Below are positions 3,001 through 6,000 of a stretch of 8,207 nucleotides of DNA, in pieces. Origin of the DNA: Giardia intestinalis. Its lineage: Eukaryota. Location of the stretch: assembly GCA_000002435.2 (NCBI GenBank), contig AACB03000019.1; one strand, written 5' to 3'. The notes under the pieces are model-generated. The model did not search any database and had not been told where the DNA came from. It saw only the letters and a list, made by a program, of their open reading frames with translations. Position 1 is the first letter of the stretch. Each line of letters begins with the position of its first letter. Made by a program: the position numbers and the translations under genes.

Positions 3001-6000
3001 TGGCGGAAAGAAATGCGGAGTCGGCTGCCCGGCGAACTCCACCCCTAAGGAGAGCGTGTGCGAGTGCAACGGAGGATACAGGCCGAACGCCCAGGGCCAG
3101 TGCGAGCAAGACCCCGCCGCGGTGTGTGCGCCCCGCGCTGATCGGCGCCGGGTGTGCGACATGCACAGGAGAGAACGACGGACAGACGTGCCTTACGTGT
3201 AATCCCCAAGAGAACAAGGTGCAGCCTGGCGGAAAGAAATGCGGAGTCGGCTGCCCGGCGAACTCCACCCCTAAGGAGAGCGTGTGCGAGTGCAACGGAG
3301 GATACAGGCCGAACGCCCAGGGCCAGTGCGAGCAAGACCCCGCCGCGGTGTGTGCGCCCGCGCTGATCGGCGCCGGGTGTGCGACATGCACAGGAGAGAA
3401 CGACGGACAGACGTGCCTTACGTGTAATCCCCAAGAGAACAAGGTGCAGCCTGGCGGAAAGAAATGCGGAGTCGGCTGCCCGGCGAACTCCACCCCTAAG
3501 GAGAGCGTGTGCGAGTGCAACGGAGGATACAGGCCGAACGCCCAGGGCCAGTGCGAGCAAGACCCCGCCGCGGTGTGTGCGCCCGCGCTGATCGGCGCCG
3601 GGTGTGCGACATGCACAGGAGAGAACGACGGACAGACGTGCCTTACGTGTAATCCCCAAGAGAACAAGGTGCAGCCTGGCGGAAAGAAATGCGGAGTCGG
3701 CTGCCCGGCGAACTCCACCCCTAAGGAGAGCGTGTGCGAGTGCAACGGAGGATACAGGCCGAACGCCCAGGGCCAGTGCGAGCAAGACCCCGCCGCGGTG
3801 TGTGCGCCCGCGCTGATCGGCGCCGGGTGTGCGACATGCACAGGAGAGAACGACGGACAGACGTGCCTTACGTGTAATCCCCAAGAGAACAAGGTGCAGC
3901 CTGGCGGAAAGAAATGCGGAGTCGGCTGCCCGGCGAACTCCACCCCTAAGGAGAGCGTGTGCGAGTGCAACGGAGGATACAGGCCGAACGCCCAGGGCCA
4001 GTGCGAGCAAGACCCCGCCGCGGTGTGTGCGCCCGCGCTGATCGGCGCCGGGTGTGCGACATGCACAGGAGAGAACGACGGACAGACGTGCCTTACGTGT
4101 AATCCCCAAGAGAACAAGGTGCAGCCTGGCGGAAAGAAATGCGGAGTCGGCTGCCCGGCGAACTCCACCCCTAAGGAGAGCGTGTGCGAGTGCAACGGAG
4201 GATACAGGCCGAACGCCCAGGGCCAGTGCGAGCAAGACCCCGCCGCGGTGTGTGCGCCCGCGCTGATCGGCGCCGGGTGTGCGACATGCACAGGAGAGAA
4301 CGACGGACAGACGTGCCTTACGTGTAATCCCCAAGAGAACAAGGTGCAGCCTGGCGGAAAGAAATGCGGAGTCGGCTGCCCGGCGAACTCCACCCCTAAG
4401 GAGAGCGTGTGCGAGTGCAACGGAGGATACAGGCCGAACGCCCAGGGCCAGTGCGAGCAAGACCCCGCCGCGGTGTGTGCGCCCGCGCTGATCGGCGCCG
4501 GGTGTGCGACATGCACAGGAGAGAACGACGGACAGACGTGCCTTACGTGTAATCCCCAAGAGAACAAGGTGCAGCCTGGCGGAAAGAAATGCGGAGTCGG
4601 CTGCCCGGCGAACTCCACCCCTAAGGAGAGCGTGTGCGAGTGCAACGGAGGATACAGGCCGAACGCCCAGGGCCAGTGCGAGCAAGACCCCGCCGCGGTG
4701 TGTGCGCCCGCGCTGATCGGCGCCGGGTGTGCGACATGCACAGGAGAGAACGACGGACAGACGTGCCTTACGTGTAATCCCCAAGAGAACAAGGTGCAGC
4801 CTGGCGGAAAGAAATGCGGAGTCGGCTGCCCGGCGAACTCACCCCTAAGGAGAGCGTGTGCGAGTGCAACGGAGGATACAGGCCGAACGCCCAGGGCCAG
4901 TGCGAGCAAGACCCCGCCGCGGTGTGTGCGCCCGCGCTGATCGGCGCCGGGTGTGCGACATGCACAGGAGAGAACGACGGACAGACGTGCCTTACGTGTA
5001 ATCCCAAGAGAACAAGGTGCAGCCTGGCGGAAAGAAATGCGGAGTCGGCTGCCCGGCGAACTCCACCCCTAAGGAGAGCGTGTGCGAGTGCAACGGAGGA
5101 TACAGGCCGAACGCCCAGGGCCAGTGCGAGCAAGACCCCGCGCGGTGTGTGCGCCCGCGCTGATCGGCGCCGGGTGTGCGACATGCACAGGAGAGAACGA
5201 CGGACAGACGTGCCTTACGTGTAATCCCCAAGAGAACAGGTGCAGCCTGGCGGAAAGAAATGCGGAGTCGGCTGCCCGGCGAACTCCACCCTAAGGAGAG
5301 CGTGTGCGAGTGCAACGGAGGATACAGGCCGAACGCCCAGGGCCAGTGCGAGCAAGACCCCGCCGCGGTGTGTGCGCCCGCGCTGATCGGCGCCGGGTGT
5401 GCGACATGCACAGGAGAGAACGACGGACAGACGTGCCTTACGTGTAATCCCCAAGAGAACAAGGTGCAGCCTGGCGGAAAGAAATGCGGAGTCGGCTGCC
5501 GGCGAACTCCACCCTAAGGAGAGCGTGTGCGAGTGCAACGGAGGATACAGGCCGAACGCCCAGGGCCAGTGCGAGCAAGACCCCGCCGCGGGTGTGTGCG
5601 CCCGCGCTGATCGGCGCCGGGTGTGCGACATGCACAGGAGAGAACGACGGACAGACGTGCCTTACGTGTAATCCCAAGAGAACAAGGTGCAGCCTGGCGG
5701 AAAGAAATGCGGAGTCGGCTGCCCGGCGAACTCCACCCTAAGGAGAGCGTGTGCGAGTGCAACGGAGGATACAGGCCGAACGCCCAGGGCCAGTGCGAGC
5801 AAGACCCCGCCGCGGTGTGTGCGCCCGCGCTGATCGGCGCCGGGTGTGCGACATGCACAGGAGAGAACGACGGACAGACGTGCCTTACGTGTAATCCCCA
5901 AGAGAACAAGGTGCAGCCTGGCGGAAAGAAATGCGGAGTCGGCTGCCCGGCGAACTCCACCCCTAAGGAGAGCGTGTGCGAGTGCAACGGAGGATACAGG

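Follow-up and report, generated by a model that had tools for sequence, protein, structure and literature searches.

The contig AACB03000019.1 of the Giardia intestinalis assembly GCA_000002435.2 raises the question of how one tandem repeat can be flawless in its middle and riddled with small differences on either side. The stretch of DNA analysed here, called the window throughout, is 8,207 nucleotides (nt) long and consists of copies of a 225-nt unit. This unit encodes part of a VSP (variant-specific surface protein), and the same unit fills most of the catalogued gene GL50803_0050290. The contrast between core and flanks is best explained, with a probability of roughly 90%, as long-read consensus error lying over near-identical units of this catalogued gene and not as divergence between the units. 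This explanation is favoured because the differences are frameshifting insertions and deletions (indels) of the homopolymer type, because their density follows a gradient from the ends, and because they are absent from the reference gene.

The array and its perfect core

Tandem Repeats Finder described the whole window as a single tandem array with a period of 225, 36.5 copies, and 98% matches. The guanine and cytosine (GC) content is about 65% and uniform along the array. Published averages for Giardia genomes are 46–50%, and under-assembly of GC-rich repeat regions has been noted in some of these genomes (PMC11169602).

Differences were counted in an alignment of the window with a flawless concatemer built from the core unit. 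Over the whole window, 80 differences from the consensus were found (45 deletions, 31 insertions, and 4 substitutions), and the array measures 8223 nt (36.5 units) once the net change of -16 nt caused by the indels is undone. None of the differences falls into the core, where the period of 225 is exact over 7.6 units and seven intact 75-amino-acid units start at positions 3135, 3360, 3585, 3810, 4035, 4260, and 4485. Two other runs are free of differences (5737–6378, 642 nt, and 6560–7055, 496 nt), and outside the three clean runs the 80 differences are spread over 5361 nt, about 1 per 67 nt.

When 80 events were placed uniformly, a largest gap of at least 1708 nt was obtained in 0 of 200,000 simulations, with a simulated 99.9th percentile of 1077 nt, and an analytic estimate for a gap of 1708 nt is about 6e-7. 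A uniform rate therefore cannot yield the clean core, and the heterogeneity between core and flanks is not due to chance. An earlier sequence-only reading had already described a 1.7-kb core of 7.6 identical units, shorter perfect runs at about 5739–6380 and about 6560–7055, and roughly one difference per 60–100 bp elsewhere. All three observations were recovered, the three clean runs with coordinates within 1–2 nt, and the simulations and the analytic estimate agree with its claim that the heterogeneity is real and not uniform.

The unit is a coding module of a catalogued VSP gene

Translated in an open frame, the unit gives a 75-amino-acid module (ALIGAGCATCTGENDGQTCLTCNPQENKVQPGGKKCGVGCPANSTPKESVCECNGGYRPNAQGQCEQDPAAVCAP) with 10 cysteines (13.3%) and two CXXC motifs, CATC and CLTC, and thereby has the cysteine-rich ectodomain with CXXC motifs that characterises Giardia VSPs (PF03302). 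A search of about 5.8 billion proteins returned only Giardia VSPs, namely a 128-amino-acid protein of isolate WB, which contains one unit, and its orthologues in isolates P15 and DH. Four bare units gave nothing above the cut-offs in Pfam and NCBIfam, whereas the 128-amino-acid protein (GL50803_00102178), with one unit plus tail, reached 67.6 bits for PF03302 over residues 15–128 against a cut-off of 31.4. The PF03302 match thus requires unit and tail combined. A bacterial cysteine-rich repeat, an idea prompted by the GC content of 65%, was dropped when the homology search gave only Giardia VSPs.

Two reference genes carry the unit. GL50803_0050290 (XP_037901808.1 / KAE8302825.1) is a WB VSP of 2153 amino acids that begins with a signal peptide, continues with 27 exact full units at a spacing of 75 amino acids and a 28th unit entering the transmembrane (TM) region, and ends in CRGKA. 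In the Illumina-corrected WB reference, these 28 units show neither an amino-acid difference nor a frameshift. The gene has been listed on chromosome 3 with 6462 nt, 28 repeats, and 283 cysteines in 2153 amino acids (supplement, bioRxiv 10.1101/2022.03.07.483299). GL50803_00102178 (XP_001704930.1) carries exactly one unit between its signal peptide and a TM helix followed by CRGKA. Both genes are located on NC_051858.1, have consecutive GenBank protein accessions, and share an identical signal peptide and tail. The two proteins also fall into the same 90% cluster, that of GL50803_00102178, and the latter has, with its one unit, the minimum of two CXXC motifs.

For a comparison of the DNA, the 399 nt printed from the start of the GL50803_0050290 coding sequence were available, and nt 40–399 match the window core exactly. 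These 360 nt comprise the true 5' edge of the array plus 1.6 units. In GL50803_00102178, nt 40–256 are identical to the core (217 nt). Together with the 27 units of GL50803_0050290 that are 100% identical at the amino-acid level, this identifies the repeat of the window with that of a catalogued VSP gene. Window and GL50803_0050290 share the 75-amino-acid unit (100%), the period of 225 nt, the phase, and the coding strand. They differ in that the reference gene has 28 units, a signal peptide, and the TM/CRGKA part, whereas the window counts 36.5 units, lacks the gene ends, and carries 76 frameshifting indels beyond its core. The second gene, GL50803_00102178, in contrast to the window, holds a single unit and no array.

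The window is internal repeat throughout and contains no VSP signal peptide, which in the reference genes with the identical unit reads MLLVLLASCIAVQA. A TM helix with CRGKA, present in both GL50803_0050290 and GL50803_00102178, was likewise not found in the window. The window is thus a fragment of a VSP gene that lies wholly inside the array. Only 11 of its approximately 36 units still encode the module. The sequence-only reading had not recognised the unit as coding; seen as a coding 75-amino-acid VSP module, it makes the diagnosis of an artefact straightforward.

Spectrum of the differences

The differences comprise 76 indels and only 4 substitutions. Indel lengths are 1 nt (70), 2 nt (5), and 4 nt (1), none a multiple of 3, so that every indel breaks the VSP frame. 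Two of the four substitutions adjoin an indel and are probably by-products of the alignment. If half of the differences were expected to be substitutions, the probability of finding at most 4 among 80 would be 1e-18.

The indels are also strongly concentrated in homopolymer runs. Single-nucleotide deletions lie in runs of at least two in 35 of 42 cases (expected fraction 0.43, p = 1e-7) and in three CCCC runs in 14 of 42 (expected 0.053, p = 2e-8), and 25 of the 28 single-nucleotide insertions duplicate the adjacent base. Hot spots within the unit are the CCCC runs at position 72 (6 times) and position 136 (6 times) and the AAA run at 105 (5 times). Such a predominance of short indels over substitutions, concentrated in homopolymers, is expected of an artefact. 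It resembles the consensus errors of long reads (PacBio continuous long reads or nanopore), which are likewise indel-dominated, homopolymer-biased, disruptive to open reading frames (ORFs), and worst at low coverage, whereas the excess of G insertions at the right end of the window is not an assignable textbook signature.

A real degenerate array would be expected to contain many substitutions and in-frame coding indels and to show variants shared between neighbouring units. Neither was found. Only one pair of units has two or more variants in common; this pair is not adjacent, and both variants are contractions of hot-spot CCCC runs. Independent accurate sequence lacks the differences as well, in 28 units at the protein level and in 360 plus 217 nt of DNA. 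Orthologous units of isolates DH (assemblage A2) and P15 (assemblage E) share 85–89% nucleotide identity with the window unit and differ from it by substitutions and one in-frame indel of 3 nt.

Position of the differences

Units nearer to an end of the window carry more differences (Spearman rho = -0.73 for differences per unit against distance from the closer end, p = 4e-7), and a log-linear fit puts the density at the ends at 25/kb and the decay length at about 1.7 kb (likelihood-ratio chi2 = 32). Plotting differences per unit against position had been proposed in the sequence-only reading, and the counts per unit show a density that falls away from the window ends. An error density that tracks the ends is expected of an artefact, and taking the gradient as a contig-end effect assumes that the window ends are contig ends.

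The density is roughly U-shaped, with 19.5/kb at the left end, 8.0 in the left shoulder, 0 in the core, 5.4 in the right shoulder, and 17.4 at the right end (zones in Table 1). The left end zone has a raw-read-like spectrum, with many differences outside homopolymers. In the left shoulder, the contractions affect CCCC at unit positions 72, 136, and 206 and AAA at 105, and the right shoulder holds the perfect runs 5737–6378 and 6560–7055. Half of the 14 insertions in the right end zone are G or GG. Homopolymer contractions account for 17 of 21 differences in the shoulders and for 19 of 59 in the end zones (Fisher p = 2e-4).

Decay at the edge of a real array was considered and rejected: the window includes no edge of the array, and the genuine 5' edge, as printed for the reference over 360 nt, is perfect. 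Diverged units next to unique flanks, as such decay would leave them, were not found, the reference 5' edge being equal to the core.

How a consensus artefact might arise

In the true genome, the 225-nt units would be identical or essentially so. Near the contig ends, few reads would support the consensus, and raw-read-like insertions and deletions could survive there. In the shoulders, only systematic under-calls of homopolymers would remain, and in the centre none. The drop in coverage at the ends would be geometric in a contig consisting entirely of repeats. Read placement may in addition be governed by the few consensus errors present. Accurate reads from a perfect array would align best to perfect units, leaving error-bearing units with no corrective coverage, and a clean centre, once present, would keep being reinforced by polishing while the flanks are starved. 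This feedback in mapping might also allow secondary clean patches, such as 5737–7055.

Best-match placement of error-free reads from a perfect array gave results of this kind. Reads of 150 nt and 1 kb overlapped 0 of the 80 sites, and all 1-kb reads were placed within 3132–4839. Reads of 2 kb reached 4 of the 80 sites, and even reads of 5 kb reached only 23. Such reinforcement of a clean centre would explain a perfect core beside flanks that never improve.

According to Xu et al. 2020, the WB genome was assembled from PacBio reads with HGAP and Quiver, Canu contigs from unmapped reads were added, and correction was made only at sites with at least 10 mapped Illumina reads (PMC7000408). The 33 leftover contigs of less than 33 kb, which stem from unmapped reads, are "enriched with repeats ... 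and gene families", and this PacBio assembly of Giardia WB is itself reported to contain indel errors of the homopolymer type (PMC7000408). An 8.2-kb contig composed entirely of VSP repeats has the look to be expected of such a leftover contig, and the window would then presumably come from a long-read platform.

The sequence-only reading had offered two interpretations, only one of which is upheld. Uneven polishing of a repeat in which reads could not be placed uniquely is supported by the indel spectrum, the gradient, and the clean reference. As an explanation of the contrast, an expansion or gene conversion that very recently affected the central block only found no support, since the whole array is homogeneous including its 5' edge, and homogenisation is therefore not peculiar to the centre. 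The near-perfect identity of the units implies recent expansion or continuing homogenisation of the entire array, which is already implicit in the reference annotation.

Several points weigh against a consensus artefact. Its inference draws on the sequence and on a comparison with the reference, and this comparison covers 360 nt plus 217 nt as DNA and the other 26 units at the protein level only. It is conceivable that a few CCCC-to-CCC changes, which recur, are genuine. With 36.5 units versus 28 in the reference, the window is not a simple copy of the reference locus. A secondary bump at 4840–5736 with 10 deletions, all in runs of at least two, is followed by a nearly clean stretch at 5737–7055; the gradient is accordingly not a simple U, which is consistent with patchy polishing. 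Finally, the two ends have different spectra, the left one being rich in deletions (23 versus 14 insertions) and the right one rich in insertions (14 versus 4 deletions) and G-heavy. The unlike spectra at 7056–7900 and 1–2000 suggest different supporting reads or strands.

Alternative explanations

The alternative that survives best takes the differences as errors, too, and regards the contig as an assembly construct, over-extended or mis-joined from repeat-only reads, so that its length of 36.5 units would be uninformative. This is a serious possibility, although its odds fall somewhat short of even. The window has no unique anchor, overlaps offset by multiples of 225 nt score equally, and the two ends have unlike error spectra, as if they came from different reads. 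Adam et al. 2010 described the VSP repeat numbers in assemblies as approximate (PMC2996952). No counter-evidence was found, and such a construct is compatible with a consensus artefact, as it concerns the copy number only.

A real degenerate array or pseudogene, that is, a second, frameshifted copy in which gene conversion or unequal crossing-over recently made the centre homogeneous again, is very improbable. Tandem arrays are commonly homogenised more efficiently at the centre than at the edges, which would suit this idea. Since its units outnumber those of the reference gene, the window might be another locus, and some variants recur (CCCC contraction 6 times at unit position 72 and 6 times at 136). 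In Giardia WB, 208 pseudo-VSPs are annotated (PMC7000408). However, real decay normally leaves many substitutions, of which there are only 4 among 80 differences, and the variants found are homopolymer-biased and duplicate adjacent bases. Divergence of a real array would also leave haplotypes inherited between units, and there are none. The density tracks the window ends although no edge of the array lies within the window, the genuine 5' edge of the reference array equals the core at the DNA level, and the divergence between orthologues, with its substitutions and one in-frame indel, looks entirely different.

A closely related version, to which an equally small chance is given, is a genuine second copy or allele of at least 37 units in which the CCCC-to-CCC changes at 72 and 136 and the AAA-to-AA change at 105 are real, and which would constitute a frameshifted pseudo-VSP array with its centre re-homogenised from the intact gene.

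Least probable of all is an allelic mixture, in which the consensus would switch between array alleles of the tetraploid Giardia genome with slightly different units: allelic variation in repeat number is documented for vspA6 and vspC5 (PMC2996952) and higher allelic variation has been reported around VSP genes (PMC7000408), but all 76 indels are frameshifting where alleles of a coding repeat should show substitutions or in-frame changes, no consistent alternative haplotype runs across the units, and Assemblage AI isolates are reported to be highly homozygous (PMC11169602).

Copy number and known repeat-containing VSP genes

VSP genes with long identical tandem repeats are already well known, and the gene in question is already catalogued. 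The first WB assembly yielded 30 VSP genes with repeats, whose units of 105–516 nt occur in up to more than 20 copies (PMC2996952), and in the new assembly 36 of 136 VSPs have tandem repeats. Among the known examples are vspA6/CRP170, with a 195-nt unit in about 22–23 copies, and vspC5, with a 105-nt unit in about 25 copies (PMC2996952). Like GL50803_0050290, both consist of a leader, many identical tandem units filling most of the ectodomain, and a conserved tail, and their copy number varies between alleles and is "approximate" in assemblies (PMC2996952). The sequence and length of their units differ from those of the window unit. The pair GL50803_0050290/GL50803_00102178 (28 units and 1 unit) has a parallel in vspA6 and its one-copy relative vspA6-S1 (PMC2996952).

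The result is of little biological importance and is useful mainly for quality control. In its present form the contig is unfit for annotation; gene callers would predict spurious fragments by the dozen, among them minus-strand ORFs as long as 844 amino acids. The apparent "divergence" of the flanks is likewise unfit for inferring the evolution of the repeat. Contigs composed only of repeats resist polishing, as accurate reads go to units that are already correct.

The sole loose end of biological relevance is the copy number. A value of at least 36.5 versus 28 units would, if true, be a further example of varying repeat number in VSPs or of an under-counted reference, as documented for vspA6 and vspC5. 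The 36.5 units might belong to a longer allele or paralogue in tetraploid Giardia, might reveal an under-count in the reference, or might come from an over-extended contig.

Table 1. Coordinates of the array, its zones, further ORFs, and orthologues in other sequences
Feature	Sequence	Coordinates	Strand	Remarks
225-nt tandem array, 36.5 copies	window	1..8207	+	Tandem Repeats Finder; entirely internal; repeat region of Giardia intestinalis VSP GL50803_0050290
Left end zone	window	1..2000	+	39 differences, 19.5/kb; 23 deletions, 14 insertions, 2 substitutions
Left shoulder	window	2001..3131	+	9 differences, 8.0/kb; among them six contractions by 1 nt in runs of at least 3
Perfect core, 1708 nt	window	3132..4839	+	exact period 225; no difference from consensus
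One reference unit in coding register, ALIGAGCATCTGENDGQTCLTCNPQENKVQPGGKKCGVGCPANSTPKESVCECNGGYRPNAQGQCEQDPAAVCAP	window	3360..3584	+	10 Cys, two CXXC motifs, CxC..GGY motif
Right shoulder	window	4840..7055	+	12 differences, 5.4/kb; 11 deletions in runs of at least 2, 1 insertion
Right end zone	window	7056..8207	+	20 differences, 17.4/kb; 14 insertions, 4 deletions, 2 substitutions
Minus-strand ORF, 844 amino acids	window	2375..4909	-	by-product of in-phase repeat
Minus-strand ORF, 579 amino acids	window	3045..4784	-	by-product of in-phase repeat
Single-unit orthologue, DH/A2	L001	10001-10384		one unit by blastn
Single-unit orthologue, ENA metagenome contig	L002	2196-2579		one unit by blastn
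Single-unit orthologue, P15/E	L003	8747-9133		one unit by blastn

Further observations

The minus-strand ORFs were rejected as genes, as two reverse frames of the unit are free of stops and in-phase repetition makes long ORFs mechanically. They are likely to be mis-called by prokaryote-style gene finders.

A 50-nt pattern spanning the unit junction had 0 matches in metagenome contigs of the Joint Genome Institute (JGI). A sequence search of the PDB with the GL50803_00102178 protein gave only spurious matches of the TM helix to glucagon receptors, and a literature search for the gene ID of the repeat VSP gave no matches.

By blastn, the multi-unit version was not seen at the DH, P15, and ENA contig loci, which belong to short-read assemblies in which it may be collapsed or lost. 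Synteny is conserved around the single-unit orthologues, which have an aminotransferase and a kinase gene upstream, and the DH orthologue has a reverse-transcriptase gene downstream.

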